In this document: positions 709-49,792 of the stretch, piece by piece
How positions within the stretch are numbered: position 1 is the stretch's first letter
Layout of the letters: every line of letters begins with the position of its first letter
Source of the DNA: an uncultured Planctomycetales bacterium
GTDB taxonomy: Bacteria; Omnitrophota; Gorgyraeia; Zapsychrales; Fredricksoniimonadaceae
Assembly: GCA_964520655.1 (NCBI GenBank)
Contig: CAZFNI010000004.1
Coordinates: 25,628-89,627 of the forward strand
Direction of reading: 5' to 3'
DNA length: 64,000 nucleotides
Position numbers and translations under genes: made by a program
Notes under the pieces: model-generated
Told to the model about the DNA's origin: nothing
Seen by the model: the letters and a program-made list of their open reading frames with translations, nothing else
The model's database searches: none

Positions 709-780
709 TCATTTTTCTCATGGTGCGGCCTTAAAAATTCGTTATAATAAAACCAATTCCAATAATTAGTTCGAGGGCTC

Positions 781-2202: not shown

Positions 2203-2211
2203 GAGCAGGAC

Positions 2212-9695: not shown

Positions 9696-9711
9696 TATCC
9701 TTTAAAAATAA

Positions 9712-10395
9712 TCATTGTCTACGGATATTTGCGAGTGTTCTTAGGTATTGTTCATGTATGCGGTCTGAAGCGATGCACAGGCTGGATCGCTGTTTGTGTT
9801 GATGCTTGCCCATGATCATCCCCAGGAGTTTCCCTTGGCGGTTAAAGATCGGTCCGCCGCTGTCACCCTGAAAAAGGTTCAAATTCGTTTCAAGGAATTC
9901 GATCGTGCCCCGGCTTTGGCTGGCAACAAGACCGGTGATGCTCCCCGATAGGATGCTGTGCTCATTATAGTCCGATGAACCGATCGCGATGATCGATTCT
10001 CCCAGTTTGGCTTGAGCGGAATCCGCGAATAAGACAGGTTGTAAGCCGGAGGCATTGATCTTGATGATGCTAAAATCGTGGTCGGTCGAGACAAAGAGGA
10101 CCTGGGCATAAAATATACGGCCATCTGCGGTTGTAATGGTGATCCGCGGCGCGTTCTTGATGATATGGGTATTGGTGATGATCAGACCTTTGGCATCGAT
10201 GATGATCCCGGTGCCTTTGCGAGTATAGCTGACTTGCTGGGGACCTTTGGGGGTTTTAACGATCTTGGTATAGATCGTTTTGACGCTGACGATCGATCTC
10301 TCCAGCTTCTGCATTTTTGCCAACAGAGATGTTTCCGCGTGAAGCGGGGAAGCGGTCAAGAACAGGATCATAAGGCTGCAAATAGTACTTAACAT
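9712..10395 (-). CDS. Secreted trypsin-like (S1 family) serine protease (227 aa)
   Basis: Signal peptide 'MLSTICSLMILFLTASPLHA'. The catalytic serine motif 'GDSGGPIF' is present. Confidence 0.8.
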   Translation of the reverse strand: MLSTICSLMILFLTASPLHAETSLLAKMQKLERSIVSVKTIYTKIVKTPKGPQQVSYTRKGTGIIIDAKGLIITNTHIIKNAPRITITTADGRIFYAQVLFVSTDHDFSIIKINASGLQPVLFADSAQAKLGESIIAIGSSDYNEHSILSGSITGLVASQSRGTIEFLETNLNLFQGDSGGPIFNRQGKLLGMIMGKHQHKQRSSLCIASDRIHEQYLRTLANIRRQ

Positions 10396-17696: not shown

Positions 17697-18515
17697 GTGG
17701 GGCGGGTGAAAAGTTTTTTTATTGGTTTTGCTGTCGTTTTATGCATCGTGCTCTTTGGTTTTATCTTGTGGATGCGTGACCGCTATGTTGTCCCCATTCT
17801 GACGTATCATAATGTATCGACGCATTTGGGGCAGTATTCTCTCAATAATGTGACGCCGCAGGCATTTGCCTGGCAGATGAAGTTTTTGGCCAAGCATCAC
17901 TATGATGTCATCAGCTTCGACGATTATGTTCAGGGCATAAAAAAGGGCACAGCATTCCGTAAGAATACGGTCGTGATCCAGTTTGATGACGGGTATGAAG
18001 ACAATTATACCCAGGCTTTTCCTATTCTTCGCGAACATCATTTTCCTGCCAGTATTTTCTTGATCTCAGACAGTATTGGTTTAAAAGACTTTATGACGTG
18101 GGATCAGGTAAAGGAGATGGAGAAGCACGGCATTGAATTCGGTGCGCATACGCGCCGCCACGCGTATTTACCGGAGATCAGTCATGAGGCAGCCGTTGAT
18201 GAGATCGCTGGTTCCAAGAAGGTCATTGAGGCGCATTTGTGGCATCCCATCAAATATTTTGTTTATCCTTCCGGCGGGTTTACCGATGATATCAAATCGA
18301 TCGTGATCGCAGCAGGATATCAGGCTGCCGGGACGACAAATCGGGGAAGGGATATGTTTAATCGCGATCTTTTTGAATTAAACAGGATCCGCGTGAAAAG
18401 CAAAGATAATGCGTTGACATTTTGGGCCAAATTGTCCGGTTATTATAATGTGTTCCGCCAGTCACGCTGCGGGGAACATTGCGGAAAGGAAACGTATGTC
18501 GTATCGCCTCAATGA
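17697..18515 (+). CDS. Polysaccharide deacetylase (NodB homology domain, CE4) with N-terminal TM anchor (272 aa)
   Basis: TM 'FFIGFAVVLCIVLFGFILW'. The NodB motifs 'VIQFDDGYEDNY' (TFDDG-like) and 'HTRRH' (His motif) are present. Confidence 0.8.
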   Translation: MGRVKSFFIGFAVVLCIVLFGFILWMRDRYVVPILTYHNVSTHLGQYSLNNVTPQAFAWQMKFLAKHHYDVISFDDYVQGIKKGTAFRKNTVVIQFDDGYEDNYTQAFPILREHHFPASIFLISDSIGLKDFMTWDQVKEMEKHGIEFGAHTRRHAYLPEISHEAAVDEIAGSKKVIEAHLWHPIKYFVYPSGGFTDDIKSIVIAAGYQAAGTTNRGRDMFNRDLFELNRIRVKSKDNALTFWAKLSGYYNVFRQSRCGEHCGKETYVVSPQ

Positions 18516-21500
18516 GAATGGGTCGTTTGAGATCACGAATTTTAGCCAGGAAAAGGTGTTTGCTAATTTCTTTCCTGGGGTCGCTGGCCTATACGGGATC
18601 CCGATGTGGGCGTTTTATATCAATCGAGGGCAGGGGATCAGTTCTTTTGGCATCGAGTCCAAGGATAAATCCATCCTGGAATTCCAGCCAGCCAACCGCG
18701 CTTACCGTTTGACGTCGATACAGGGTTTCCGGACCTTTTTAAAAGTTGGCTCTAGTAGCGCTAAGAAATTTTACGAACCGTTCGCCAACCCTGTGGCCAG
18801 TCCTTATAAGATCACCAGCCGCATGATCATCCAAAGCCATGATCTGACCATCGAAGAGGTCAACAGCACGCTTGGGATAAAAACAACCGTTAATTATTTT
18901 ACTTTGCCGGAAGCGCCATACGCGGCGTTGGTGCGGCGCGTTACTTTCGAGAATATCGGCAAGAAAGACGTCGAGGTAGAGTGTATTGATGGTTTGCCGG
19001 CGCTTAATCCTTATGGTTTAAAAGATTGGCTGGGCAAACACATTTCCCGTACGGTGGAAGCTTGGGTGGCGGTGCACAATATCGCCAAGAAAGCCCCGTT
19101 CTTTCAGTTGAAGGTGGAGGTGGCGGACACACCGCAGGTCACGCACATCCATGAAGGGAATTTTTATTTTGCGTTTGATGCCAAGACAAAAAAGTTGCTG
19201 GATCCGATCGTGGAGTCCGCGCTGGTGTTCGGCCAGGCTAGCGATTATCTGGTCCCGGAGAACTTTTTAAAGAATGCCAAATTCATTGTGCCAGTCAAAC
19301 AGCAGACGACTAACCGTACCCCCAGCGCTTTTGTTGTTCAGAATTTCTCATTGAAGAAGGGTAAGTCGCATCAGATCACGGCGCTGGCCGGCTATGCGCA
19401 TGATCTTGCGGAATTAAACAGCGTGGTTAAAGAATCGCTTAAAGGTGATTTTATTGACACTAAAGCTTTGCGCAATAAAGCCATCATTGACGATATCAAA
19501 CAGTATTGTTTTACCAAAAGCGCGTCCAATACCTTTGACCAGTATTGTGGCCAGAATTTCTTGGACAATGTCTTGCGCGGAGGATTGCCGGTATCATTGA
19601 AAACAGCGCAGGGACCGGTGTCGTTCAATGTTTATAGTCGAAAGCACGGAGACTTAGAACGAGACTACAATTTCTTCACCCTGGCACCGACATATTTATC
19701 TCAGGGCAATGGTAATTTCCGTGACGTCAACCAGAATCGCCGCAACGATATTTGGTTCAATCAGGATGTCGGCAGCAGCCTTCTCGTTAATTTCTATAAT
19801 TTGATCCAGGCGGACGGGTATAATCCGCTGGTCATTAAGGGCTTGAGCTTTAGTGTTGAGAAAGAATCGCAGATCGATGAGATCATAAAAGAGTTTGAAC
19901 CCCAAGGCGATGTGGCGAAACTCAAAGCATTATTGAAAAAAGGGTTCATGCCCGGCGAGCTTTTAAAAATGATCAGCCGAGAAGTGCCGATCAAGGGCAA
20001 AAGCGCGGATTTTCTCTCGAAGGTCTTAAGCGTCAGCCAGAAGCAAGAACAGGCGGAATTCGGGGAAGGGTATTGGGCGGACCATTGGACCTATAATCTG
20101 GATCTGATCGAAAGTTATTTGAGCGTTTATCCTGAGAATCTACGGGAGATATTGCTCGATCAGAAAGTATTCTATTTTTATCTTAACGACGCCTATGTAT
20201 TGCCGAGGGAGAAGCGCTATGTGTTGACCTCACGGGGCGTACGGCAATATCATTCGCTGGCAGAACACGACAAGAACATTCAGTCGGCAGCCAAGGGTCA
20301 TCGGCTGCGTGTCAAGGCAGGACAGGGTGATGTCTATCACACCACATTGCTCGTTAAATTATTGGCATTGCTCGCTAATAAAGCCGCGACATTGGATCCC
20401 AGTGGTATCGGTGTTGAGATGGAGGCCAATAAGCCAAATTGGTACGACGCATTAAACGGTTTGCCGGGTCTGCTCGGGTCGTCGATCAGCGAGACAATGG
20501 AAGTGAATCGTTTAGCGGCCTTTGTCAAACGTCAGCTGGAAGAATTAAGTGTTGGTGGTCAAATGCCGGTAGTGATGTTCAAAGAACTCGCGGACTTTAT
20601 TGAAGGATTGACACATGTCCTGCATCATGAAAAAGACAGCCTCGAATATTGGCAGAAATCCAATAACCTCAAAGAGCATTACCGTCAGCATGTGCGGGCA
20701 GGTATCGATGGCAAAGAGCGGTCGCTGACGATCACGCAGATCAATGAATTCTTAACCGGCGTTGTGGAAAAAACGGCTCAGTCGCTGGATAAGGCCAAGG
20801 ATGCCAAAGGATTGTTCGCGACATACTTTTATCATGAAGTCACGCAGTACCAAGAGTTGGATAAAGGGCATCACGGCGACAGCCACGTGAGGGCGCAGGC
20901 GTTCAAGCGTCATGACCTGCCATATTTCTTGGAAGGATTTGTCCACGCCATGCGCGTGATGGATACGCAAAAAGCCGCAACGCTTTATAAGGCGATCAAG
21001 CAGAGTCCACTGTATGATAAGGCTCTAGGGATGTATAAGGTCAATGCGCCCTTAACACAGGAAACGGAAGAGATCGGCCGCACGCGTATCTTTCCGTCAG
21101 GGTGGCTCGAGAATGAGTCCGTGTGGCTGCACATGGAGTATAAATATTTATTGGAGCTGCTGCGTTTGGGGTTGCATGAAGAATTTTTTGCGGATGCAAA
21201 GAAATGTTTTATCCCATTCTTGGACCCTTCGCGTTATGGGCGCAGCGTCCTGGAGAATTCATCCTTCATAGCATCCAGTGCCCATGAAGATAAAAATCTG
21301 CATGGTCAGGGGTTTGTGGCCCGGTTGTCCGGTTCTACGGCGGAATTCATCCATATCTGGCTTGTCTTAAGTGCGGGGACAAAACCGTTCGTACTTAACC
21401 AGAACGGCCAGTTAGAGCTGCATTTGAAACCAGTTCTGCCGTCGTGGTTATTTAGTTCAAAGGCAGAGGCAGGTTTCCCCAAAGGGTCATATGCTTTTAA

Positions 21501-21702
21501 GTTCTTAAATAGAACTTTGGTTGTTTATCAAAATCCAAAGGGTGCGGATACGTTCGGCCCTAAGGGCGTGAGAATTACTGAATTGAAATTAACATACACG
21601 GATAAAAAAGTCGTCTCCATATCCGGAGGTATTATTCCGGAGGCTGCGGCCAAAGATGTCCGGTCGCTTAAAGTCGCACGCATTGATGCTGTTTTAGGAT
21701 AA
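18496..21702 (+). CDS. Large uncharacterised protein (~1068 aa); possible carbohydrate-active enzyme
   Basis: Long ORF with no signal peptide and no motif I can assign to a family. It is co-oriented with the deacetylase genes. The start at 18496 was chosen over 18448 to minimise overlap. Confidence 0.5.
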   Translation: MSYRLNENGSFEITNFSQEKVFANFFPGVAGLYGIPMWAFYINRGQGISSFGIESKDKSILEFQPANRAYRLTSIQGFRTFLKVGSSSAKKFYEPFANPVASPYKITSRMIIQSHDLTIEEVNSTLGIKTTVNYFTLPEAPYAALVRRVTFENIGKKDVEVECIDGLPALNPYGLKDWLGKHISRTVEAWVAVHNIAKKAPFFQLKVEVADTPQVTHIHEGNFYFAFDAKTKKLLDPIVESALVFGQASDYLVPENFLKNAKFIVPVKQQTTNRTPSAFVVQNFSLKKGKSHQITALAGYAHDLAELNSVVKESLKGDFIDTKALRNKAIIDDIKQYCFTKSASNTFDQYCGQNFLDNVLRGGLPVSLKTAQGPVSFNVYSRKHGDLERDYNFFTLAPTYLSQGNGNFRDVNQNRRNDIWFNQDVGSSLLVNFYNLIQADGYNPLVIKGLSFSVEKESQIDEIIKEFEPQGDVAKLKALLKKGFMPGELLKMISREVPIKGKSADFLSKVLSVSQKQEQAEFGEGYWADHWTYNLDLIESYLSVYPENLREILLDQKVFYFYLNDAYVLPREKRYVLTSRGVRQYHSLAEHDKNIQSAAKGHRLRVKAGQGDVYHTTLLVKLLALLANKAATLDPSGIGVEMEANKPNWYDALNGLPGLLGSSISETMEVNRLAAFVKRQLEELSVGGQMPVVMFKELADFIEGLTHVLHHEKDSLEYWQKSNNLKEHYRQHVRAGIDGKERSLTITQINEFLTGVVEKTAQSLDKAKDAKGLFATYFYHEVTQYQELDKGHHGDSHVRAQAFKRHDLPYFLEGFVHAMRVMDTQKAATLYKAIKQSPLYDKALGMYKVNAPLTQETEEIGRTRIFPSGWLENESVWLHMEYKYLLELLRLGLHEEFFADAKKCFIPFLDPSRYGRSVLENSSFIASSAHEDKNLHGQGFVARLSGSTAEFIHIWLVLSAGTKPFVLNQNGQLELHLKPVLPSWLFSSKAEAGFPKGSYAFKFLNRTLVVYQNPKGADTFGPKGVRITELKLTYTDKKVVSISGGIIPEAAAKDVRSLKVARIDAVLG

Positions 21703-26158: not shown

Positions 26159-29100
26159 GTGAAACCCCTTCAACATAGACTTATATCCTTCTTGGCGGCT
26201 ATTGCTTTTGCCGCAACGCTTATTGTCCCCATCCCAAGCCGGGCGGAATTGTTACTACCGGCTCCCGGAACGCTTGTTACTTTAAGTCCTGCCGCTGATC
26301 TTCCCATCTTAAAAGGTATCAAGGTCCATGCTGATAACCCCTTGAAGTTTGAGTTTATTCTGGATAATGGAAGAGAAACAGGTGAGGTGGCGTTAAAGGA
26401 ACAATCCAGCAAACTCATCAAATATTTCCTGGCGAGCTTAACCACGCCTGAGCAGGAGATGTGGGTCAACTTAAGCCCGTATGAAAAAGACCGCATCGTG
26501 CCGGATAGTTTTGGTCAGACCGAAATGGGCCGCGACCTATTGGCTCAGGATTATTTACTCAAGCAGATCACCGCGAGTTTAGTCTATCCGGAAGGGGATA
26601 TTGGCAAACAGTTCTGGAAGAGAGTGTATGAGTTATCGGGGAATAAGAATGTTCCGGTCAACACGTTTAATAAAGTGTGGATCGTCCCGGACAAAGCGGT
26701 GGTGTATGAGAATGCGAAGAATGGTACAGCGTATGTCGTTGAATCATCATTAAAGGTATTAACAGAACAGGATTATCTAGCCCAGGATAAGAATGCGGCG
26801 GGTGGCGCCCAAGCTGTTCGTTTCGCCCGCAGCTTAAGGGGGACAATGGCTTTATCTTCTGCTACCCCACGGGGGGATGGGTTAAGCGAGGACGAAACGA
26901 ATAGTTGGGCGACAGGACCCGCTCATGCTATCCGGGATCTTGTCATCCCTCAACTGACCAAAGAGGTCAATGAAGGTAAGAATTTTGCGCAGCTGCGTCA
27001 GGTTTACAATTCTCTCATTCTTGCCACATGGTACAAGAAGAAGATCAAGGACAGCATCCTCTCCCAGGTTTATGCCGATAAGAACAAGGTAGACGGTATC
27101 ACCATCGATGACCCCAAAGAGAAAGAACGGATATACGCACAGTATTTGGAAGCCTTCAAGAAGGGGGCGTATAACTATATTAAAGAGGAGCGTGATCCCT
27201 TAAGCGGGCAGGTGCTGCCCAGGAAGTATTTTTCCGGCGGGGTAAAATTTGGCGATTTGGCGATGACGACAAGCGCCAAGCCTCCTCAGCAAAATGTTCA
27301 TCAAATTGCGTCTGTTGTAGAAGTAAGGATCGATCAGTTAGGGGCTGGTTTGGATAACGCAATGACTGCGGCTTCTTTGCAGGGGGAGAGGAAAGATCCT
27401 CTTGTTTTAAAAGGCAAGATTGTTGAAAGAGATACATTTAATCATATTTCTTCCATGGTTCGCAGCAGCAGAGAGGCGACCCCTCGTGTATGGGAGATTT
27501 CTGATTTTGAGAAAGTTTTGTCTCATCCACTTCAACTTAAGCAGTTTGTTGATTTGCCTCTAAGCGTTGCGGCTGAAGTGATGATCGTGTATACGGATGA
27601 CGGACGATGGCTTTTTTGTGCAGCTGGGGTAGAGCCTGGTGTTTCCCTTGACCCTTTTAAGGAATTAATTGACCAAAAAAAGATCGTGTTCCATATGCAT
27701 TCGCATCCATATATTCACGAAAATAGAACGTTTGGGGGCAATACATCGGAATATCCATCATTGGTTGATTTAGAATTCTTTGAATATTACGGCGGCATCA
27801 GTGGACATCTATCGAGAGAGGGGTTGACCATTACCAGAATGCCGCCAACGAGATTGTCAGGTGATAAAAGAGGTGGTACCGATTTCCATTATGAATTTAA
27901 ACGTTGGGTGTGGAAGGAATATCCGTGGCTTGATTCTCCATTGGGATTAGGAAAAGAATCTAAAAAGGCCTACAAGGATTACCTTAGATCCATGGATGTG
28001 GATATTAATATTGTGCCTTGGGATGAGGGGGCTTTAAGATCTGCTTTGTCTGGAGCAATCAACCAGGCCATGATGACCAAAGCACGAATCCTTCAAGACC
28101 CCTTACAACCCGCCAGGGATCGCCGTATTCCGTTAGATAAAGAAGCGTTAAAACCGTTGTTAAAAGGGAAAACGATCCTGATCACTGGTGGGGGGGGCTC
28201 TATTGGTTCCGCTTTAGCTTTTGAGATCTTGAAAGAGTTCGGGGATGATATAGAAAAAATTGTTTTGTTTGGTCAAGGCTCAGAAAATCTTGCTAAGGTA
28301 GTGGCGCAAATAAAGGGGATGGAAAGATCCGCGCAGAAAGTTATTGTTGTTACGGGTGATGTGAGCCGTTTAGATCAAATTGAGCCTGTTTTCAAAGAAT
28401 ATAGTCCACAGATCGTTTATCATTTAGCTGCTGAGACATCCCCGGTTATTACTCAAGCAGATCCATCCCGTGCCATCGCAGTGAACGTTTTTGGAACACA
28501 CAATATGGTCGCTTTGGCGGATCGGTATAGCACGGAACATTTTATTTACACATCTTCCAGCAAAGCCACAAATGTTTTACCAGATAGTGTCTTAGGACAA
28601 ACCAAGAGGCTGGCAGAATATCAAGTCCAGTTAAAAGCCAGGAATAGCCGCACCCAATTTGGGATCGTCCGTTTCGTGCATACATTAGATACTAGGGCAA
28701 GCTTGGTCATGAAGATATTCCAAGACAAGATCGACCGCCATGAGCCATTGCCGGTTATGCGGGAGGCGGCTACGTATTTTCAGAATACGCATGAAGCGGT
28801 TAATCTTGCGTTGAATGTCCTTTTACTGTCCCGTAAAGGCGAGATATTTGCCCTGTCGGATGTTGGTCGACCGGTAAAGATTGAGGACATTGCCCGATAT
28901 TTATTATCGCAAAATGGCAAAGGCGATGAGCAGATCAAATTCATTCCCTTAAGAGAAGGGGAAGTTGTTCCTGTTTTTCAACATGAAGATGCAGGAAGGG
29001 CTGTCATAGCGGCGCAAGAGTACAAGGGTGTTCTGGTGGAGAATAAAGCGATCGCAGAAGGTGTGCCGCTTGCGATTGATGGTGCGGTGTTGTCCGAAGG

Positions 29101-32100
29101 GTTGGAAAGGTTGCATAGTAATTTAGGGAACACTGCGGTGGATTTAAAGGCGGAGCTTGTTGAATTGATGAAAGATGTTTATGGATCCATTGATCCTGCT
29201 CAGAAGGCATCAGAAGATGAAAGGCAGGCCTATGTAACAATGTTTAAGGATAAACTATTTGGAAGCAAGAACGGGTTTAACATTACGCTCAAGGGTGGAC
29301 AACGGCTTCCTGTTGTCCTTACTCAATCACAACAACATTTTGTCAGCCATGATCCATATGCGCTGGATATTGTATTGTCTCCTGAGTTTGAAGATAAGGG
29401 CGTATTAGAACAATCATTTCCTGGTTTGGCCTTTTTATATGATTTTACACCGAAAGATGATTTCGCTCCGCCGCAGGGATCCATCGGTCAGGTGGGGGTT
29501 AATATGATCTTCCCTCGAGTGACAATGAAGGAACTATTGGCTCTTGCTAAGGATCCGGACGCTTTTTATGAGTTCAGGATGAATCTTCCCAGCCGGATAT
29601 CCTATGGGGCGATCTATAAGGGGGAACTGGATCTTGATGAGCATCAAGCGAGAATGAAAGAATTTTTTCAGGAGAATTATGAAAAGGTCAGGGAATTATT
29701 TGACAAAATGTATCATCAATCCCCGATCTTGGTGATCACCTATAATCAAGCCAGTGGCGCTCTAAGAAGTTCTTCGAAAAATGGGCGCATGTTTCCAGAA
29801 TGGATTGAGGCCGTGCATCGCCATATATTGGAAGCAGCCTCGTCAATGGGGATTAAGGATATCTATGCCATTCCCTCTGATTTGGCGGCGTTTTTGTATC
29901 CTGGGTTGAAGAATGAAGATGCGCTGCGTTTAATGTATGACCGTCCGTATCAGAGTAAGCCGTATTGGAGGCAGGAGTATGTAAAAGATGATCAGCTGTT
30001 TGGTCAGATCAAAATGGAATATAGGTTAAGCGGTTCATACTTTTGGAAATATCATGCCAATTCCGGTGAAGATCATGCTCAAATATCTGACCCGACGTTG
30101 TTGCTAAACACTAATCAAAAGATATTCAAAAACGGTGTCCGTTTAGTTGAATATCCAAGTAGCGATGATGTGACCTACTATGCCGCGCGCCGCATGGCGG
30201 ATGTTCTGATCACCAATAATGCATTAAAGCGCCAGACGCGGATGATAACACCTACCGGTGGAACATATGAACCGGTGTATGCAGCGTTTGTCCGGATCGT
30301 TAAGGAAGAGGGGATTGATTGTTCGAATTTGATCACATATAACATGGATGAATATTATGTGGGACAAGATGGTGCCAAAGGCCGTTGGGATCAGCATCCG
30401 CAAAGTTACCGTCAGTTCATGGAAAAACATTTATACGCTCCGCTGCGGGAGATCGGATCAGGATGGAATAATGACAATGGGCATGTCTTAAACGGCAATG
30501 CCGTGGACATCGATGCAGAGGTGAGGGCTTATGAGCAGGCGGTGCGTGAGGGAGGGATCGATATCGCTTTTGGCGGCATCGGACGTGATGGGCACATTGC
30601 CTTTAATGAACCGATCATTACTGTTAGTGCGTTTGGTTCCATTGAAGTTGAGAAAGCCAGGGACTTTAATGAGTTTTTATTAGACATCCCTCCGGAGAAA
30701 CAATTAGATCTGTTGGAGGAGGTTTTAACAAAACATTGGGCCGCTCGGCGCTCATCTGTTTTTGCAGAGTATTTAAGAATGAATCTAGTTGTCCCTTATT
30801 TCCCCGCAACGTTGCCGGATGATCTAGCTGCATTTATGGAAAAATTGTTGCGTCAGCCGGTCGTGATCTATTTTAAACATTTAGATGATGATTTTAAAAA
30901 GGTTTTGGAAAAACGTGCCGCTAACTTAGCATCCATGATGGGGGGAGGCTCTGTTACTGTTAAGGAATTAAAAGATCCGGCGGATATGCCGACCCGGGTT
31001 GTTCACCTGGCATTGCCGACATTGTTTGATAACAGCCGTTTTCTTAAAGAGGACATCAAGAACATGCGTGATATCCCGTTGTCCGCATTAACAGTCGGCC
31101 CAGGAACGTTGCGTCATGCTAAAGAAATCGTTGTTGCAGCAACCGGAGCGAAAAAAGCAGAGGCTGTCACCGATGCAGCGTTAAATAAACCAACTCCTGA
31201 TGTTTCGGCGTCCCTGCTTCAAGGGCATCAGAACCTCACGTTTGTTTTTGATACATCTGTAGCAGAGAGCTCAAGGCCGTTGCAACAGGCGTACGCAAAA
31301 GAGGCGAAGATCCTTGATGATCAGCGGTCTCTTCCTCCTTCAGCAGATGCTGCTATGAGGGCGGAGGGTATTTCAGCCAGAGAGAGAGCTGACAAGGCTT
31401 TATATCAAGCCTTGGAGGGAGCTTTGTTCGAATCAGCGAATATGGAACTTCAAGTCAAGGGGTTTGGCAGGGTGCCGCTGAGATTTTCTAAGGCAAGGTT
31501 CCACATGCCAGGGCCATTATTTGCCGATGAGTATCCGTTGGATGTGGTGGTTAGTCCAAAAGAACCGTACACTCAAGAAAAAGTACGTAAGGAAATACTC
31601 CCTCCAATGGATTTTCTTTTTGATGGAAAAGACCCAGGGGCATTTTATCCTCCCAAAGGTTCTTTTGGTCAGATAGGCATTAGTTTGGTGTCTCTGGATC
31701 ATTCGACCGCCTTATTGATCAACTACAATCAGGCAAGCAACGGGTTAAGATCATCTGGCAAGGACGGCCGTCCATTCATTGGTTGGGTTGAAGCGGCCCA
31801 TGAACGTATCATTGAAGCTGCGCGCTCTGTTGGGATACAGCAGATCTATGCGTTGCCAAGCAAGGCGGCCGGTAAGCTCTATTATGGACTTGAGAGCGCT
31901 GATGCTGTTAATCTGGCCTATGAAAAACCTTATCAGAATAAAGAACACTGGAAGGAAGTTGTTGTTGATGAGGAGTTAGCCAGAAAGATCAAGGTTGGAT
32001 TTAATGATCATGAACAGCCGTTCTTATGGAAATATGATCTCGGAACATTAAAAGAAACCCCAGAACTTATAAATGAAGAAGGAGTATCAGCGGATTGGCT

Positions 32101-34462
32101 TCGTGGGATGTTTGAACTTGACTCAGAGGGAAGAATGTCTTTTGCGTCAGGCTTTAACGGTTTGCCGTTATTGTTTGACTTATATTATGTCCGACATGGG
32201 CAGACAAAAGGCAATCTTGAGGGGATCTTACAGGGGCAGCAGGAAACAGCCAACAGTCAGTTGACGGACGAAGGTATTTCACAGGCCAAACAAGCAGCGG
32301 TAAAACTGTTTGATCAATTGGGGCTGGCAAAGTCAAAACCTTCCCGCTCATTGGTCATTGTGACTAGCCAACTTAACCGGACCAAAGAAACGGCGGATTT
32401 CTTTGTCCAGATGCTTAAGGATCATGGTGTTCCATTTGAGATCGTCGATGATCAGTTACAGCGATTGATCAATGAATTAAATGTTGGCGCGATGGGCAAT
32501 AAGAAAGAGTTGATGCCGCAGGAGCAGGATCTATTGAAGCGATACATGGCAGCCAATGCGAAGGAAAAATTCCCTCGAGGGGAAAGTTTTGTAGATCTGA
32601 TCCTTCGCGCAAGGCAATGGCTGTTGAAAATGAATGAACAGTATCAAGGTCGCACGGTCGTTGTGTTTGGTCACGGTAATCAAAGCGGCGCACTGCGGGC
32701 TTTATTGGGCGACCGGACAATCCTTAATGGAGAGGGAAGCGTCGACTGGATCAATAATAAACTTCCTAATGCATTGCCGGTGCAGTTAAGTTCCGGATTT
32801 AAGGCTGATGCGGCAATGCGTGCGGAAGATATTTTTGATTTCGAGAAAGATGAATTGAAAGTGGTTGTGTTAGAACGGAAATTACAGGAAGTGATGTTGA
32901 AGGTCAACAATGGAGGAAGGGCGATCATTGTCGGTGGGACAAGATATTTTAATAGCGGACAACGTAAAGATGTCGATGTTTTGTTAAAAGGGATGGATAT
33001 GTTCAGTCAAGGCGGCAGCTTTGTGGCCGCCTTAAAAGAAATGCTGCTTGCCTATGAGGGTGTGCGTATTGATGATGTGATCGATCTAAGAAAGCGCAGG
33101 GTGATTATAAAATTCACTCTTCTTGGGGAGAATCATCAGAGTCGTTCATTATCTATTGATCTGATCGGATTCTTCGATGGAGATGATGCTGCGTTGGTCA
33201 GAAGGCTTAAAGAAGTCGCGGTGAATGGTTTTCGCATGCATATCTCTAACGCGGAGTATGAGGATAAGTTTAATGAGCTGGCAGTAAAAGATTATTTTGA
33301 GGTTGAGTATTACTTAGGCGACCGCACGGTTTATGAGCAAATGCTTGGCAAGTTCAAAGATCCCGTAACAATAGGAGAATTTTATAAACCGGATGGTCTG
33401 ATGGCCAACAGGATGATGGAGCTAAGGTCTAAAGTGCAGGGTCTGACTGATCAACAGATCGCTGAGGCAGTCGATGCGAAATTGGCTGTCTCCGCTGACA
33501 TGGCCCAGCGTGTAGGAGAACCACTGGCGCCTTTCAAGGGATTTAATTTATCGTCACAGCAAATGAGCCGCTTGGCGGATTTTTTAGGTGTTCCTCAGGA
33601 TGTTCTAGAAAACGAGAATTTAGTGCCTCAGCATCCGGAAAGGCCGTCATTAACCTCGCGACAGACTTTTAAATATACCTATTTAGGGAAGGAGTTTTAT
33701 GTAAAGTCTGGTCCGGATTACGAAACATTATTGGAAGAAGCAAAAACAGCCAACGTTGTCCATAATAGCGGTTTGTCAACTCAGGCAGCGGTCGTTGGGA
33801 ATAATATGCTGTTGCTCCCAGAAGAACTGCGCGATAAATATGCGGATCCAGCGATCGCTAGAACTAAGGGATTTATGCTTGTAACAAAAGGAGCCCAGGG
33901 AGAAAGCTGGTTCTCGATATTAAAAAAAGGGAATAAGATCACTTATCAGATGGTCGTGGATTTGGCAAGAGCCATGGGAAGGCTTCATGCCCAAGGATTA
34001 GCGCATAATGATCTATACAGTCAAACAGAAGGTTTTAAAACGGAACATATCTTCCAAACAAGTCAAGGTGTTGAGTTTATTGATTTTGGATTGACTTCGA
34101 GGCTTTGGCCTCAAATCTTTCATGAATCAGAAAAAAAAGCTGTTTGGCAGGCATTAAGCCGTATGGTTGATGCACAAACAGGCGGCGAGACATTAAAAAA
34201 AGTCTTTGATGACGCCTATCTTCAAGGATTTCAAGATAGTGAGCGTAGGCCTGTTTCTGGAGATGCGGCCATGGCAAAAGGCGGGATTGATCTTAATGCA
34301 GGGAAATTGGACCTTCAAACCCGCCATGAGGGGAAGGGATTGGAGTTTAAGACTGATCCGGCCTTGCTGAAAAGGCTTCAAAATGCCTCTGGATTTACCC
34401 CTGTGATCATCAATATCCGCCCCTTAGGGGATTTGAACGTCTTTCTAGGTGTCAGCGGTTAA
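26159..34462 (+). CDS. Giant secreted multi-domain protein, paralog 2 (2767 aa): conserved N-domain, CapD-like dehydratase, NagB-like, His-phosphatase, kinase-like, conserved C-module
   Basis: GTG start. Signal peptide 'MKPLQHRLISFLAAIAFAATLIVPIPSRA'. The N-domain is shared with 3506 and 46538. 'KGKTILITGGGGSIGSALAFEIL'+'TKRLAEY' indicate a CapD/WbpM-type NAD Rossmann domain. 'ITPTGGTYEP...NMDEYYVG...GGIGRDGHIAFNEP' indicates NagB. 'LYYVRHGQTKGN' with a downstream 'VVFGHGN' indicates a histidine phosphatase. 'LAHNDL...IDFGL' indicates a protein-kinase-like domain. The C-module reads 'GGIDLNAGKLDLQTRHEG...DLNVFLGVSG'. Confidence 0.8.
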   Translation: MKPLQHRLISFLAAIAFAATLIVPIPSRAELLLPAPGTLVTLSPAADLPILKGIKVHADNPLKFEFILDNGRETGEVALKEQSSKLIKYFLASLTTPEQEMWVNLSPYEKDRIVPDSFGQTEMGRDLLAQDYLLKQITASLVYPEGDIGKQFWKRVYELSGNKNVPVNTFNKVWIVPDKAVVYENAKNGTAYVVESSLKVLTEQDYLAQDKNAAGGAQAVRFARSLRGTMALSSATPRGDGLSEDETNSWATGPAHAIRDLVIPQLTKEVNEGKNFAQLRQVYNSLILATWYKKKIKDSILSQVYADKNKVDGITIDDPKEKERIYAQYLEAFKKGAYNYIKEERDPLSGQVLPRKYFSGGVKFGDLAMTTSAKPPQQNVHQIASVVEVRIDQLGAGLDNAMTAASLQGERKDPLVLKGKIVERDTFNHISSMVRSSREATPRVWEISDFEKVLSHPLQLKQFVDLPLSVAAEVMIVYTDDGRWLFCAAGVEPGVSLDPFKELIDQKKIVFHMHSHPYIHENRTFGGNTSEYPSLVDLEFFEYYGGISGHLSREGLTITRMPPTRLSGDKRGGTDFHYEFKRWVWKEYPWLDSPLGLGKESKKAYKDYLRSMDVDINIVPWDEGALRSALSGAINQAMMTKARILQDPLQPARDRRIPLDKEALKPLLKGKTILITGGGGSIGSALAFEILKEFGDDIEKIVLFGQGSENLAKVVAQIKGMERSAQKVIVVTGDVSRLDQIEPVFKEYSPQIVYHLAAETSPVITQADPSRAIAVNVFGTHNMVALADRYSTEHFIYTSSSKATNVLPDSVLGQTKRLAEYQVQLKARNSRTQFGIVRFVHTLDTRASLVMKIFQDKIDRHEPLPVMREAATYFQNTHEAVNLALNVLLLSRKGEIFALSDVGRPVKIEDIARYLLSQNGKGDEQIKFIPLREGEVVPVFQHEDAGRAVIAAQEYKGVLVENKAIAEGVPLAIDGAVLSEGLERLHSNLGNTAVDLKAELVELMKDVYGSIDPAQKASEDERQAYVTMFKDKLFGSKNGFNITLKGGQRLPVVLTQSQQHFVSHDPYALDIVLSPEFEDKGVLEQSFPGLAFLYDFTPKDDFAPPQGSIGQVGVNMIFPRVTMKELLALAKDPDAFYEFRMNLPSRISYGAIYKGELDLDEHQARMKEFFQENYEKVRELFDKMYHQSPILVITYNQASGALRSSSKNGRMFPEWIEAVHRHILEAASSMGIKDIYAIPSDLAAFLYPGLKNEDALRLMYDRPYQSKPYWRQEYVKDDQLFGQIKMEYRLSGSYFWKYHANSGEDHAQISDPTLLLNTNQKIFKNGVRLVEYPSSDDVTYYAARRMADVLITNNALKRQTRMITPTGGTYEPVYAAFVRIVKEEGIDCSNLITYNMDEYYVGQDGAKGRWDQHPQSYRQFMEKHLYAPLREIGSGWNNDNGHVLNGNAVDIDAEVRAYEQAVREGGIDIAFGGIGRDGHIAFNEPIITVSAFGSIEVEKARDFNEFLLDIPPEKQLDLLEEVLTKHWAARRSSVFAEYLRMNLVVPYFPATLPDDLAAFMEKLLRQPVVIYFKHLDDDFKKVLEKRAANLASMMGGGSVTVKELKDPADMPTRVVHLALPTLFDNSRFLKEDIKNMRDIPLSALTVGPGTLRHAKEIVVAATGAKKAEAVTDAALNKPTPDVSASLLQGHQNLTFVFDTSVAESSRPLQQAYAKEAKILDDQRSLPPSADAAMRAEGISARERADKALYQALEGALFESANMELQVKGFGRVPLRFSKARFHMPGPLFADEYPLDVVVSPKEPYTQEKVRKEILPPMDFLFDGKDPGAFYPPKGSFGQIGISLVSLDHSTALLINYNQASNGLRSSGKDGRPFIGWVEAAHERIIEAARSVGIQQIYALPSKAAGKLYYGLESADAVNLAYEKPYQNKEHWKEVVVDEELARKIKVGFNDHEQPFLWKYDLGTLKETPELINEEGVSADWLRGMFELDSEGRMSFASGFNGLPLLFDLYYVRHGQTKGNLEGILQGQQETANSQLTDEGISQAKQAAVKLFDQLGLAKSKPSRSLVIVTSQLNRTKETADFFVQMLKDHGVPFEIVDDQLQRLINELNVGAMGNKKELMPQEQDLLKRYMAANAKEKFPRGESFVDLILRARQWLLKMNEQYQGRTVVVFGHGNQSGALRALLGDRTILNGEGSVDWINNKLPNALPVQLSSGFKADAAMRAEDIFDFEKDELKVVVLERKLQEVMLKVNNGGRAIIVGGTRYFNSGQRKDVDVLLKGMDMFSQGGSFVAALKEMLLAYEGVRIDDVIDLRKRRVIIKFTLLGENHQSRSLSIDLIGFFDGDDAALVRRLKEVAVNGFRMHISNAEYEDKFNELAVKDYFEVEYYLGDRTVYEQMLGKFKDPVTIGEFYKPDGLMANRMMELRSKVQGLTDQQIAEAVDAKLAVSADMAQRVGEPLAPFKGFNLSSQQMSRLADFLGVPQDVLENENLVPQHPERPSLTSRQTFKYTYLGKEFYVKSGPDYETLLEEAKTANVVHNSGLSTQAAVVGNNMLLLPEELRDKYADPAIARTKGFMLVTKGAQGESWFSILKKGNKITYQMVVDLARAMGRLHAQGLAHNDLYSQTEGFKTEHIFQTSQGVEFIDFGLTSRLWPQIFHESEKKAVWQALSRMVDAQTGGETLKKVFDDAYLQGFQDSERRPVSGDAAMAKGGIDLNAGKLDLQTRHEGKGLEFKTDPALLKRLQNASGFTPVIINIRPLGDLNVFLGVSG

Positions 34463-34514: not shown

Positions 34515-35534
34515 ATGAATAAATACCATACTATTATAAATAAATTCAAAGGCAAGCGTCTGCTTGTCATCGGCGACTTGGTGCTGGATCAGTATATTAA
34601 GGGTTCGGTCAGCCGGATTTCGCCGGAAGCCCCTGTCCCTATTGTGGTTCAGGAAGATTCGTTCTTTACGCCTGGCGGGGCGGCCAATGTGGCCAATAAC
34701 TTAAGCAGTTTGGGTGCGGATGTGACCTTGGTGGGCAAGGTGGGAGATGATATTGAAGGAGCGGTCTTAAAGAAGGAATTGACTCGCCGCCATATCCACA
34801 CCAATGGTGTTTTTATTGATCCAGACATGGAAACCATTTTCAAGACCCGCATCATTGCCCAGCAGCAGCAAGTGGTGCGCGTGGACCGGGAAACACTGGG
34901 TCTTTCCAACGACAAGATGTTTGCCGGGCATATTTTGCCGTTCTTGCAGAAACATTTTACCAGTTACGACGCCGTGATCGTTTCGGATTACGGTTAAGTG
35001 ATCGTGGATATTAAGCTGATGGCTTCCATCCATGACATGGCGCTTAAACATAAGATTCCCGTCGTAGTTGATCCTAAATTCGAAGATCTGCGGGCTTACG
35101 GTGTGGTTAGCAGCATCACCCCTAACAAGAAAGAAGCAGAAGCGGCATTGAAGGCGATCACTGACAGCGCCCGAAAAGCCTTTGGTATCATTTCGGTCAA
35201 GCTCGATAGAAAAGAAGATATTGAAAAGAATGGTCAGGGCTTACTTGCTTATTTAGGGATTGATTCGCTGCTAATTACTTTGGGCGAGCAGGGGATGTAT
35301 TTATTTGAGCATAATCGCAAGCCGTTCCCTATTGCCACCCGCGCTCAGGAAGTTTTTGATGTCAGCGGTGCTGGGGATACGGTTATTTCGGTTTTTGCCT
35401 TGTGTTTGGCGGCCAAAGCCAATCGGCGCGCGGCGGCGGATATCGCCAATTACGCTGCCGGGGTTGTTGTTGGTAAGATGGGGGCTGTCGCGATCGAATT
35501 GGATGAGTTAAAGCGGGCGGTTAAAAAGGCATGA
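34515..35534 (+). pseudogene. hldA: D-glycero-beta-D-manno-heptose-7-phosphate kinase (RfaE domain I / HldA-like, ribokinase family) interrupted by an in-frame TAA at 34995-34997
   Basis: The two adjacent ORFs (34515..34997 and 34998..35534) are in the same frame and align end-to-end with one kinase: '...VSDYG*VIVD...' versus E. coli HldE domain I '...VLSDYAKGAL...' (recalled from memory, not checked). The second half carries the ribokinase-family motif 'DVSGAGDT'. A GTG codon immediately follows the stop. Confidence 0.55.
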
Positions 35535-46537: not shown

Positions 46538-49500
46538 ATGTTAGGAAAAAAACATCCCATCTTTCATTTAATGCTGGCGGCGGTTCTGGCCATGGGTTTT
46601 GATCCCTCTCTGGTCTTGGCCGAAGAGCTTGTTGTTCCGGCAATGCCCAAGGCTGGGACGATGGTCTTTTTAAGTCCGGCGTTTCAACCGGCAACTGTCA
46701 TGGGCATGACCATTTCTCCGAAGGATCCGTTTCAATTTGATTTTTTGATACAGCGGGGAGATGGGGTTTATGATGAAACATCGAAACAGCAGGAATACCG
46801 CAAACTTATCAAATATTTTCTGGCCGCGTTAACGGTCCCCGACCATGATCAGTGGGTCAATCTTTCTCCCTATGAACAAAACCGCATTATCGAAGAACCA
46901 TTCGGCCGGACAGAAATGGGTCGGGACCTTTTGGCTCAAGATTATTTGCTCAAGCAGATCACTTCATCCTTGATGTACCCCGGAGCAGGCCTGGGTCAGG
47001 CATTTTGGGACAGGGTCTATGCGCAGGCAGGCAGTGCTTTGGGCAAGAGGGATATACCGGTCAATGCTTTCCATAAAGTATGGATCGTTCCCGACGATGT
47101 TGTTATCTACGAAAATCGTCAGGGCGCGGTCATTTTAAAGAGTCATTTGAAGATTATGCTTGAAGAAGATTACTTATCTTCTCTGAAGCATAAAGCGGGT
47201 GACGCCCAAGCTCATTTTATTGCCCGCAGCCCCAGGGGGACAATGGCTTCATCTCCTGCTACCCCACGGGGGGATGGGTGGGGCGAGGACAAGAAAATGA
47301 GTTTGGCGGCAGGACCCGCTCTTGCTAGCCAGGTTATGCGTGACATTATTCTCCCTGAACTTGAGAAAGAAGTGAATGAGGGCAAGAACTTCGCGCCGCT
47401 GCGCCAGATCGTCAGCGCGATGCTGATGGCCACCTGGTATAAAAAAGCGTTAAAAGGATCGCTGCTGGGTCAAGTTTACGCGGATAAAGGCAAAGTCGGC
47501 GGTGTATCCAGCGACCCAAAGAATATTGAAAAGATCTACGCACAATACCTGGATGCGTTTAAGAAGGGGGTCTTTAATCTGATCAAAGAGGATCAAGACC
47601 AGCTGACCCATCAGGTGATCCCCAGGAAATATTTTGCCGGCGGTTTCAGCCGTGACGAGGCGATGGTCACCTATGTGGGAAGCGCTTCTGGTGATGAAGT
47701 GGACCTAGGGGATGGTAGAGAGCGTTTAATGGCGATTGCTGCGAGAAAACATGTGCGGCTTAGCGAAGTGTTGAGAGCCAGTCCGCGCATATTGCCAGAG
47801 CTGATCGTTGAGACGCTGCTGTATGGATTATTTTGGAAGGTCATCGATCGCGCGCGGGTGAATATGGATGAATCGAGAGGCGGAGCCATGATCATTGTTG
47901 GTAAGCCAAAAGAGCCGGTTGTTGCGCCTTCTTCTTCGATCACGACATTGTCAGGTGACACGCGATCAAGATTCTCTCAGCTGGTTAATCTTAATATTGA
48001 AGAAGCGTTCCATACAACTGGGACAGGCAGTCTCCATGAGCTTTTAGGGGTCAAGTCAGAAGCGGCGATCGGTTATCCCGCACTCGAGGAGCTTGTCATT
48101 TTACCGAATAAGATAGTCGGGGGGTATAAGATCTCGGCACAACCTCAAGCCAATATTTTTCTAACGATCAATGATGCGAAGTATGTATTTGCTTATAATG
48201 AACTTTCCACCGAGGATAAAAGGCAGTATGTGCTGTTCGCTGATGATCGGGAGATCGGCCGTTTCGATTTTTCTGTCCCGCTTGTCATCCGAAAAGACCT
48301 TATCCCGGCAGAACTTGTGCCGCTGTTGATCCAGGGGGATAGTCCTGTCCTTAAGGAACATCCTCAAAATAAGAAAGAGCTCTACGCGATATTGGATTTT
48401 GAAGGACTGATGAGGCTTATTTTAGAGAATGAAAAGTCTCTGATAAAGCTAAAAGAGCATATGCGTCTGCAGGATGTGTCCTTTACAGATACCCGTGGCG
48501 TTGTGGTGAATTTAACGATCGCGGTGCGCAGGGGCAAAGACGGAGGCGCTGATCTGTATTTGTTCCCGCGCAATGGAGAGAAATTGCCGCCTATTTGGCA
48601 GCTGGCTGTGCCGGCCTTCGATGCGGCGATGTCTGTTGATGGTGATGAGGTCACCCAGGCGATTCATGGACGTTTCGGCGAAATGATCTTAGAGTCTTTA
48701 CGCTTGCCGGGCAAGGTGAATATCGGGGATCGTTCATACGAGGCTGTTGCTGGAGGGAAAGGGGTGCAGCTTAAGGGGCTCAACGATTCCCGGGAGATCC
48801 GTCCCATTCTCTCTTCGGATGCTCTGTTGAGATATGGTTTTGTAAAAAGAGCGGTCAATGCGCTGCAGGCCAAAGGTCTGGTGATCAAAGATGATGACAA
48901 CAATATCGCGTTGGATCCGGATATTCAATTGCGAGATTTCAATGATGTTTTTAATGTGTCATTTACCCAGGAAGCCAGGCGGCTTAATTTGGATGCGGAT
49001 GAGATCAGGGGGATGCTCCTTGGGACCATTGGTTATGTGCTCAAGGTCCAGGAACGTAATGTCCAGGGGTATTCCGGCGTATGTGTGGTCTTAAGCAAAG
49101 ACGGTGTTTCGCTGCGCATCCTGACATTTGCCGGCAGTGAACCTGCGGTCTCTTTTTCCAGGACGAGACCTCCGCAGGAGATCATCGTTTCCCAGATGGC
49201 AGCAGGGCTGAAAGCCATTAAGGCCAGGGAAGGGCGGTACATCGGGGTTGTGAATTCAAAAGGCTCTGTGAGGTATTTTGATGAAAAAGAAGCGGAAGGT
49301 TTTGCGGATATTTATGCCGCCAGGATGATCATCCTCGAGAGAAACTTTAACTGGAAAGTTACGCGTGAACAGATCATGAAAATGATCTTTAAGGGTGAGA
49401 TCATCCCGTTCCAATTCACCGTTGCCAAAGACGGTTCTGTGGCATTTTCCAATGTGGGTAAACAGTCGATATTCTCTAAGAATGTGACAAGTATGGCGAA

Positions 49501-49792
49501 GGAGGGGGAGCTGCTGGCTGCTTTACTTAACCAGGATGCTGCGCAGGCCTCTAATGCGGATGATCTAGGGGGTATTGACCTGGATCCCGCCCACTTTAAT
49601 ATGCGTATCAAGCGTGATGCCGAAGGGGTTGTTTTACCTGCGGCGCTGCAGGACTTGAAATATTTTGAGAATATCCAGGGGCTGGTCCCTAATATTCTTG
49701 AGATCAAACCCGCCGAGGATGTTCCTATCCTTCGTGAGATCCAGCAAGAGATCAAGGTTGGCGTACAAACGCCTCATATCCCCGCGAACTGA
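46538..49792 (+). CDS. Giant secreted protein, paralog 3 (1084 aa): signal peptide + conserved N-domain + unique middle + divergent C-terminal module
   Basis: Signal peptide 'MLGKKHPIFHLMLAAVLAMGFDPSLVLA'. The N-domain 'EELVVPAMPKAGTMVFLSPAF...IPRKYFAGGF' is collinear with the other two paralogs. The C-terminus 'LGGIDLDPAHFNMRIKRDAEGVVLPAALQDLKYFENIQGLVPNILEIKP' is a divergent copy of the C-module. Confidence 0.8.
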   Translation: MLGKKHPIFHLMLAAVLAMGFDPSLVLAEELVVPAMPKAGTMVFLSPAFQPATVMGMTISPKDPFQFDFLIQRGDGVYDETSKQQEYRKLIKYFLAALTVPDHDQWVNLSPYEQNRIIEEPFGRTEMGRDLLAQDYLLKQITSSLMYPGAGLGQAFWDRVYAQAGSALGKRDIPVNAFHKVWIVPDDVVIYENRQGAVILKSHLKIMLEEDYLSSLKHKAGDAQAHFIARSPRGTMASSPATPRGDGWGEDKKMSLAAGPALASQVMRDIILPELEKEVNEGKNFAPLRQIVSAMLMATWYKKALKGSLLGQVYADKGKVGGVSSDPKNIEKIYAQYLDAFKKGVFNLIKEDQDQLTHQVIPRKYFAGGFSRDEAMVTYVGSASGDEVDLGDGRERLMAIAARKHVRLSEVLRASPRILPELIVETLLYGLFWKVIDRARVNMDESRGGAMIIVGKPKEPVVAPSSSITTLSGDTRSRFSQLVNLNIEEAFHTTGTGSLHELLGVKSEAAIGYPALEELVILPNKIVGGYKISAQPQANIFLTINDAKYVFAYNELSTEDKRQYVLFADDREIGRFDFSVPLVIRKDLIPAELVPLLIQGDSPVLKEHPQNKKELYAILDFEGLMRLILENEKSLIKLKEHMRLQDVSFTDTRGVVVNLTIAVRRGKDGGADLYLFPRNGEKLPPIWQLAVPAFDAAMSVDGDEVTQAIHGRFGEMILESLRLPGKVNIGDRSYEAVAGGKGVQLKGLNDSREIRPILSSDALLRYGFVKRAVNALQAKGLVIKDDDNNIALDPDIQLRDFNDVFNVSFTQEARRLNLDADEIRGMLLGTIGYVLKVQERNVQGYSGVCVVLSKDGVSLRILTFAGSEPAVSFSRTRPPQEIIVSQMAAGLKAIKAREGRYIGVVNSKGSVRYFDEKEAEGFADIYAARMIILERNFNWKVTREQIMKMIFKGEIIPFQFTVAKDGSVAFSNVGKQSIFSKNVTSMAKEGELLAALLNQDAAQASNADDLGGIDLDPAHFNMRIKRDAEGVVLPAALQDLKYFENIQGLVPNILEIKPAEDVPILREIQQEIKVGVQTPHIPAN

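Follow-up and report, generated by a model that had tools for sequence, protein, structure and literature searches.

Several bacterial secretion systems recognise their substrates by a conserved module of about 60-120 amino acids (aa) at the extreme C terminus, which is carried by diverse cargo and occurs in many copies per genome. The C-terminal domain (CTD) of the type IX secretion system (T9SS), the XVIPCD of Xanthomonas, which belongs to the type IV secretion system (T4SS), and the BID domain of Bartonella are of this kind, and all three are recognised by secretion machinery. Other systems are built around a payload that changes. MARTX proteins are large and secreted, with conserved ends that flank exchangeable effectors of intracellular type, short processing sites and arrays reshuffled between strains; polymorphic toxins (CdiA, Rhs, MafB) combine a conserved trafficking part with a hypervariable payload, a junction peptide, orphan cassettes in tandem and pseudogenised copies. 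Likenesses to all of these are present in a protein family of the Omnitrophota, which are widespread, uncultivated and ultra-small. The DNA analysed here (the window) is a stretch of 64,000 nucleotides of contig CAZFNI010000004.1 (assembly GCA_964520655.1, positions 25,628 to 89,627), in which three genes, G1, G2 and G3, belong to this family; the feature under study is the C-terminal tail of G2. The frame of the family, with a leader and an N-terminal domain (N-domain) at one end and the tail at the other, is two-ended and phylum-specific, is kept by strong selection at the protein level and surrounds rapidly exchanged cargo. With a probability of roughly 0.4, judged from sequence, the tail may be a docking or targeting element that is recognised in trans on a family of effector-like cargo proteins, and the short D-x-A-M/Q junctions of these proteins are likely processing sites.

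The tail is confined to one phylum and to one position in the protein. A profile of the tail was searched against 1.84 billion protein cluster representatives and matched 5,909 of them at the cut-off of E <= 1e-3, 2,288 at E <= 1e-10. In all of the best 150 of the 5,909 the match abuts the C terminus, in proteins of 72 to 2,646 aa, and a local rescan of 177 sequences placed the end of the tail a median of 4 and at most 27 residues from the end of the protein. A genome scan with a narrow search pattern, in which each GTDB species was represented by a single genome, yielded 218 confirmed sites, from which 78 loci were kept; in their 87 open reading frames (ORFs) the tail lies a median of 4 and at most 18 codons ahead of the stop, never internally and never in duplicate. 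The same holds for about 260 checked proteins, where the distance from the tail to the stop codon never exceeds 27 residues. An initial annotation of the window had proposed a conserved module at the extreme C terminus of giant secreted proteins, and this is borne out by thousands of proteins with Sec signals and unrelated cargo. Confinement to three genes, or occurrence inside proteins as an ordinary domain, had been named there as outcomes that would speak against a terminal signal; since the profile search returned thousands of strictly terminal members, neither was observed. Single metagenome-assembled genomes (MAGs) hold 5-8 tail loci in spite of the narrow pattern. The MAGs of the 78 loci are mostly deposited as Omnitrophota; the others are titled uncultured Planctomycetales, in one case Alphaproteobacteria, or 'bacterium', titles that we take as default labels or mis-binning. 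Named database matches are all "hypothetical protein" and nearly all come from Candidatus Omnitrophica/Omnitrophota. The family is thus restricted to Omnitrophota, very large and without prior description: no account of it was found in the literature, including the Omnitrophota papers examined, and no relatives were found on viral contigs.

Within the window, a six-frame scan with a hidden Markov model (HMM) finds exactly three copies of the tail, each terminal. Those of G1 and G2 are 56% identical, and that of G3 shares 25-29% with either; by BLAST, the C-terminal regions match at E = 8e-21 (G1/G2) and E = 1e-4 (G3/G2). The close match of two ends and the looser third had been seen correctly in the initial annotation. 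Its coordinates are right to 1-10 nt when the tail is taken to run from GGID to the final codon, but its start for G2, 34270, is out of frame by one base and lies 10 nt upstream of GGID, and that for G1, 6826, is off by one.

The consensus of the tail runs from GGID(L/F) through about 18 variable residues to (I/L)xF, DPAxLxxLQNAxGFxPVIINIxP and finally (M/L)x(D/N/S)LxxFLG(L/I/V). In 214 tails, up to 37 polar residues (median 10), rich in S, A, N, Q, T and P, follow the conserved FLG, and neither a hydrophobic or transmembrane helix nor a basic cluster was found there. LPXTG, PEP-CTERM and GlyGly-CTERM signals are made of a short motif and then a transmembrane helix and a basic cluster. Because helix and cluster are missing after FLG, a mechanism of this type is excluded; the same 214 tails do not have the anatomy of sortase, exosortase, archaeosortase or rhombosortase signals, and the comparison with LPXTG, PEP-CTERM and GlyGly-CTERM made initially has to be given up. 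G1-G3 and isolated tails were scanned against Pfam and NCBIfam, which presumably include models for the T9SS CTD, PEP-CTERM, LPXTG and GlyGly-CTERM; neither the tail nor the N-domain matched any model, and the T9SS CTD models (TIGR04183/PF18962, TIGR04131/PF13585) were without a match even at E <= 1. That the module matches none of the motifs of these signals had been rightly stated. The tail has no match in the PDB, and no description of it was found in the literature.

An AlphaFold2 (AF2) model of the tail alone, built from 44 sequences (pLDDT 63, pTM 0.23), consists of a hairpin of two short strands and one helix over DPAxLxxLQ, with the invariant GFxPVIINIxP segment extended and unpaired. 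At the low to moderate confidence of this model, the tail alone appears to have no compact fold and its conserved strand to be extended; this is the outcome of the structure prediction called for in the initial annotation. The T9SS CTD is a compact Ig-like beta-sandwich of about 70-100 aa, from which the weakly modelled tail seems to differ; T9SS core genes (PorK/L/M/N, SprA, PorU/V) are absent from the 64 kb of the window, and no T4SS genes were seen in it. The likeness to a T9SS CTD that had been drawn is not upheld. A sorting signal of sortase, exosortase, rhombosortase or T9SS type, to be cleaved and attached by a dedicated enzyme, would account for a strictly C-terminal module on many signal-peptide proteins per genome, but it is largely refuted by the polar ends and the missing matches, and the weak model of the tail does not look like a beta-sandwich. 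No sortase-, exosortase- or rhombosortase-like gene is present in the window, as had been noted before, or among the neighbours of 79 family loci, and we hold this explanation to be very improbable. Type I secretion finds no correspondence either. RTX proteins have no N-terminal Sec signal peptide, carry GGxGxD nonapeptide repeats and are accompanied by ABC/MFP/TolC genes; the present family has Sec leaders and a single GGID per protein, with no repeat array, and type I secretion system (T1SS) genes (ABC/MFP/TolC) are absent from the window. In other genomes, some tails (P0009, P0016) contain 'SRLRGND'-like inserts similar to a repeat element of the window that is described below.

The opposite end of the protein is also conserved. 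G1, G2 and G3 had been called otherwise unrelated, which is not the case: they have in common a signal peptide and an N-domain of about 350-380 aa, 52-57% identical, and differ in the middle. In most members the leader itself is conserved, ending in ...AFLxNxxGPxPxAQA at a predicted A-x-A cleavage site, after which the chain continues with Q(D/E)FxLPxPG. All leaders tested for a hydrophobic stretch were positive (25/25), and they are predicted to be canonical Sec signal peptides. Since cleavage would take place at the conserved A-x-A site, the N-domain begins at the predicted mature N terminus. A resemblance between this mature N terminus (MVxLSPxFxPPxLKGI) and the end of the tail (IINIQPLxDLxxFLGI) was rejected as a common recognition motif because hhalign gave it a probability of 1.8%. 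By eye, the N terminus of one tail ORF (L035 4600-6195; ...NLA followed by FTIIELVIVISVL...) resembles a type IV pilin/pseudopilin class III leader; it has no Pfam or NCBIfam support and is kept only as a lead to a link with pili or systems like the type II secretion system (T2SS).

N-domain and tail are coupled. Of 53 tail ORFs that include their 5' end, 39 begin with the N-domain, several of the others are the downstream halves of genes broken by a frameshift or an in-frame stop, and in each of the three seemingly tail-less N-domain proteins on long contigs (3/3) the tail is present in the downstream fragment. Short tail ORFs that seemed to stand alone and N-domain proteins that seemed to have no tail were discarded as real classes, most being fragments of split genes, and many "tail-only" entries in the databases are merely fragments as well. 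Splitting by frameshifts or single in-frame stops is common in the family (L069 3640-3642, TAA; L074 3748-3750, TGA; L036, L067, L083, L084, L085), including MAGs whose contig names suggest short-read (SPAdes-type) assembly; it suggests that copies are often pseudogenised and turn over rapidly or, less probably, that recoding takes place. In 87 complete proteins, the pairwise identities of N-domain and tail correlate with r = 0.80 (Mantel p about 0.001). The minimal member, the complete gene P0269 (438 aa), is made of leader, N-domain, linker and tail; its AF2 model (pLDDT 63.5, pTM 0.63) gives the N-domain a mixed alpha/beta fold. These data are also what would be expected if the tail folded onto the N-domain of its own chain as an intramolecular clasp, the cargo being an insertion in a two-piece scaffold domain. 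The coupling is near-obligate, the co-divergence strong, the minimal member holds only the two ends, and the tail has no stable fold in the model when alone, set against the pTM of whole P0269. However, tail-only genes without an N-domain retain a fully conserved tail, linker-like junction motifs separate both ends from the cargo, and simple co-inheritance predicts co-divergence too, and a clasp seems unlikely to us.

What lies between the two ends is exchanged. The 39 middles that were compared among themselves are mutually unrelated, and among the 87 complete proteins 917 pairs have N-domains of 75-90% identity, of which only 9 have related middles. Cargo length ranges from zero to more than 2,300 residues. 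Positional orthologs resemble each other only at both ends, the cargo having been replaced at fixed loci: at the G1 locus, which recurs in L040 and L045, the proteins measure 1165, 1724 and 1081 aa, and at the G2 locus 2767 aa in G2 versus 995 aa in L068. The cargo recognised by Pfam consists of intracellular-type, nucleotide-dependent domains (Pkinase, HAD, SAM methyltransferases, PLD, PPDK_N, HATPase_c, GGDEF, Kdo kinase and cytidylyltransferase), with protein and lipid kinases, epimerase/dehydratase, NagB and His_Phos as further classes. Modules typical of adhesins or extracellular hydrolases did not appear among the recognised domains.

Replacement at fixed loci raises another explanation, in which the ends have no role as protein and are a genetic handle, similar at the DNA level, for the exchange of cassettes by homologous recombination. 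Orphan-like cassettes of cargo and tail and split genes are frequent, integrases lie near 8 of the 79 loci, and the synonymous sites of tails are slightly more alike than those of N-domains, all of which would suit it. At four-fold degenerate sites, however, the identity of N-domains is 0.33-0.37 against 0.26 expected, which is nearly saturated, while the amino acids are 60-90% identical. With so little DNA identity left for homologous recombination, the ends must be kept by selection on the protein and not by gene conversion; DNA-level conservation of the ends was thereby ruled out, and the handle is disfavoured to the point of being highly unlikely. Similarity at four-fold sites is 0.38-0.47 in tails, greater than in N-domains, and may reflect a minor nucleotide-level constraint or a codon-pair effect. 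The integrases are of the phage-type tyrosine class (e.g. L041 406-1542) and might relate to cargo exchange or mobile islands.

A short motif, D-x-A-M/Q, marks the borders of the exchanged parts. It occurs 16 times in G1-G3 where about 1.9 would be expected, a density of 3.2 per 1000 aa compared with 0.33 in the other ORFs of the window, and in the 78 genome loci it is about 9-fold enriched (2.40 versus 0.27 per 1000 aa). Position 4 is Met in 84% and Gln in 16% of the junctions, and the flanks are unconserved. Of the N-domain ends (...RKYFSGG), 75% are followed by a junction within 60 aa, a share that rises to 88% when the pattern is loosened. Of the tails, 71% have one no more than 40 aa upstream of GGID by the loose pattern, compared with 11.5% for windows chosen at random. 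In G2 each Pfam domain sits between junctions, and where different middles can be aligned locally, the alignment borders are enriched about 2-fold close to the motif. The junctions are likely processing sites, at which N-domain, cargo units and tail would be released. An alternative role as internal translation start was rejected: Shine-Dalgarno sequences are not enriched upstream of D-x-A-M (13% versus 9%), which argues against a start signal, and Met is replaced by Gln at 16% of the sites. In family ORFs (L001-L079), GCG encodes the Ala of D-x-A-M in 43% of 216 instances, compared with a background of 21%; this bias, too, may be due to a minor nucleotide-level constraint or a codon-pair effect.

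Conserved modules with an exchanged payload (ends 60-90% identical, middles unrelated) and a short demarcation motif at module borders, in this case D-x-A-M/Q with its putative cleavage, are found here as in polymorphic and multi-effector systems. Polymorphic toxins use VENN or PxxxxDPxGL as demarcation motifs, and their orphan payload cassettes are promoter-less. Their variable part is C-terminal and the toxin is followed by an adjacent immunity gene, whereas in the present family it is the middle that varies, between two conserved ends; among the payloads are kinases, methyltransferases, HAD, PLD, GGDEF and other domains, and no immunity-like small downstream gene recurs in the 79 loci. PADLOC defence models gave no match. 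The ends of MARTX proteins carry glycine-rich repeats and a T1SS signal, without a Sec signal peptide, and every MARTX has its own cysteine protease domain that cleaves after Leu. This family differs from them by its Sec leader, globular N-domain, 60-aa tail and D-x-A-M/Q motif, and by having no universal protease domain; G1-G3 gave no sequence or model match to MARTX in Pfam or NCBIfam. XVIPCD and BID substrates, in turn, have no Sec signal peptides, in contrast to the predicted Sec leaders of the family.

A further comparison is with dockerin-cohesin pairs and CWB2 or SLH modules, where one small conserved module on many enzymes of an organism likewise serves attachment or assembly. The tail could accordingly be thought of as an assembly or oligomerisation module that binds other tails or the head of another chain, building a surface coat or a multi-enzyme assembly from paralogs in a dockerin-cohesin-like manner. 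Many paralogs per genome with identical end modules around different enzymes, an exposed conserved strand suitable for strand exchange, and tail-only genes usually in tandem with full-length members are compatible with it. The termini of head and tail are nevertheless dissimilar by profile comparison, cargo that needs cytosolic cofactors would be odd in a surface coat, and the modules compared carry extracellular hydrolases where this family has intracellular-type cargo. Dockerin (PF00404), cohesin, SLH and CWB2 gave no Pfam match, the tail alignment has no duplicated loop of the DxNxDGxID type found in dockerin, and no candidate scaffold carrying repeats of a receptor module was seen. An assembly role is, on balance, improbable.

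If the tail is a docking or targeting element recognised in trans, the following course can be proposed. The protein would be exported by Sec and its leader cleaved at the A-x-A site. A conserved component of the envelope, in charge of these proteins after Sec export, would then bind the tail in trans, probably by strand augmentation at the exposed invariant strand (GFxPVIINIxP, then LxxFLG). The protein could thereby cross the outer membrane, become attached to it or be directed towards a host or prey cell, and processing at the D-x-A-M/Q junctions would release N-domain, cargo units and tail. The logic would be like that of MARTX, polymorphic effectors or effectors tagged with a C-terminal domain, without membership of those families. 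Omnitrophota have been inferred to be predatory or parasitic, with T2SS/Tad/type IV pilus (T4P)-like systems adjoining giant genes (PMC10066038; bioRxiv 10.1101/2023.11.21.568195). G1 follows a T2SS/T4P-like gene set that is conserved in other genomes, in line with the link between giant genes and T2SS-like loci reported for the phylum (bioRxiv 10.1101/2023.11.21.568195). The more specific proposal of an unrecognised Omnitrophota delivery pathway, in which Sec-exported polyproteins, arrays of intracellular-type enzymes between a dedicated carrier domain at the N terminus and the recognition tail, are passed on by an envelope machine (possibly T2SS/T4P-like), cut at the junctions and set free as effectors inside host or prey, is tentative and somewhat unlikely.

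Several points weigh against a trans-recognised docking or targeting element. Genuine tail ORFs without leader and N-domain exist (DnaJ, methyltransferase, ABC1 kinase and DUF4922-like proteins, each with a tail), usually in tandem with full-length members, and a signal acting after Sec export accounts for them only if they are silent or orphan cassettes. They may correspond to the orphan cassettes of polymorphic toxin loci, or the tail may work without Sec export too. A partner gene common to the family loci was not found: 422 neighbour ORFs of the 79 loci were clustered, and the most recurrent, integrase and TPR proteins, are present at 8/79 loci. Among these neighbours, nothing co-conserved of the kind that the initial annotation had advised looking for came up above that level. 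The AF2 models are of low-to-moderate confidence (pLDDT about 63), and the 'extended strand' may reflect poor modelling. Conservation of the junction motif inside alignable modules could be followed in only six instances (n = 6). Cleavage at D-x-A-M/Q, like targeting or anchoring by the tail, is something we infer, and delivery into another cell is suggested only by the cytosolic type of the cargo domains.

Table 1. Coordinates (positions in the window) of the three family members, their parts and the gene set upstream of G1
Feature	Coordinates	Strand	Basis or remark
G1 context: GspK-like, PilM/PilN fusion, weak GspM-like ORF, TPR protein	13..3491	+	synteny kept in L040, L045, L082
G1, family member, 1165 aa (signal peptide, N-domain, cargo, tail)	3506..7003	+	ORF
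G1 predicted Sec signal peptide (MCYSISMLRNLFSYIIVLCLLPCPQIHA, then QE)	3506..3589	+	hydrophobic leader, A-x-A-type site, by inspection
G1 conserved N-domain (QELVLPVPGTMVSLSP ... PRKYFSGG)	3590..4666	+	sequence comparison
G1 junction DSAM, immediately 3' of N-domain	4667..4678	+	motif
G1 junction DKAM	4760-4771	+	motif
G1 junction DKAQ	5744-5755	+	motif
G1 junction DQAQ, 4 residues ahead of tail	6803-6814	+	motif
G1 C-terminal tail GGIDF...FLGI, 58 aa	6827..7000	+	HMM; stop codon 7001-7003
G2, family member, 2767 aa	26159..34462	+	ORF
G2 predicted Sec signal peptide (...IVPIPSRA, then E)	26159..26245	+	leader inspection
G2 conserved N-domain	26246..27253	+	sequence comparison
G2 cargo region, with eight D-x-A-M/Q junctions at its borders and within it	27254..34273	+
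G2 junctions DLAM, DNAM, DPAQ, DHAQ, DAAM, DAAM, DMAQ, DAAM	27254, 27353, 29192, 30071, 31346, 32807, 33497, 34262	+
G2 cargo domain Polysacc_synt_2	aa 673-935		Pfam/NCBIfam scans
G2 cargo domain NagB-like	aa 1328-1702		Pfam/NCBIfam scans
G2 cargo domain His_Phos_1	aa 2008-2181		Pfam/NCBIfam scans
G2 C-terminal tail GGIDL...FLGVSG, 60 aa (feature under study)	34280..34459	+	HMM; stop codon 34460-34462
G3, divergent-subfamily member, 1084 aa	46538..49792	+	ORF
G3 predicted Sec signal peptide (...DPSLVLA, then EE)	46538..46621	+	leader inspection
G3 conserved N-domain	46622..47653	+	sequence comparison
G3 junction DEAM, 3' of N-domain	47654..47665	+	motif
G3 junction DAAM	48620-48631	+	motif
G3 junction DAAQ, 7 residues ahead of tail	49535-49546	+	motif
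G3 C-terminal tail, divergent subtype (GGIDLD...GLVPNILEIKP...), with 24-aa extension	49568..49789	+	HMM

The surroundings of the three genes (Table 1) are conserved in part. Downstream of G1, the convergent genes of an STT3-like oligosaccharyltransferase and a trypsin-like S1 protease (7227..10395, with the protease at 9712..10395) follow, an arrangement that recurs in L040 and L045, and the TPR protein and the S1 protease are the only candidate partners with conserved synteny, at the G1-type locus. The trypsin-like protease and RseP had both been put forward as weak candidates for processing; the protease keeps that place at the G1-type locus only, and RseP belongs to an ordinary housekeeping context. 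The other genes of the window are housekeeping and include lipopolysaccharide (LPS) and Lpt genes, which indicates a diderm cell envelope. G2 is directly followed by a PfkB-family kinase gene (34515..35534; HldE/RfaE-type heptose kinase by alignment reading), an arrangement that recurs in L068. The kinase gene has a single in-frame TAA at 34995-34997, at a position that is Lys in the L068 ortholog (SDYG*VIV versus SDYGKGLI); nonsense mutation, sequencing error and readthrough are all conceivable. A 1084-aa ORF at 18448..21702 stands outside the family, with no Pfam match and no junction motifs.

Two further observations concern the sequences of the three genes themselves. By eye, an unannotated module of G2 is duplicated internally (29192-30070 and 31346-32150; aa ~1012-1305 and ~1730-2000), both copies beginning at a junction motif; a JAMM-like HxHxH...S..D string around aa 520, also noticed by eye, was set aside as without Pfam or NCBIfam support. 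A small repeat element lies in frame in a variable loop of the N-domain of G2 (26815-26914) and G3 (47234-47279), 96% identical over 46 nt and ~85-95% over ~100 nt by eye, and in reverse orientation in G1 (4169-4209; 41 nt, 90%). The synonymous sites around it are saturated, and since no copy was found in ~80 related loci, the element is seemingly specific to the genome of the window.

A family of thousands of members that no Pfam or NCBIfam model covers can now be described by three defined elements: the leader with its N-domain, the D-x-A-M/Q motif and the tail. Its payload is catalogue-like and rapidly exchanged, with kinases, methyltransferases, phosphatases and sugar-modifying enzymes. 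Were the tail to prove a tag for delivery or docking, it would provide a sequence handle with which the candidate effector repertoire of any Omnitrophota genome could be listed, and it could serve as bait for the machinery that recognises it. The cleavage points of giant Omnitrophota proteins are stated to be unknown (bioRxiv 10.1101/2023.11.21.568195). Should the family form a delivery pathway, the tail would represent a secretion signal of a new class, and the junction would be a new processing site that might also show where these giant proteins are cut.

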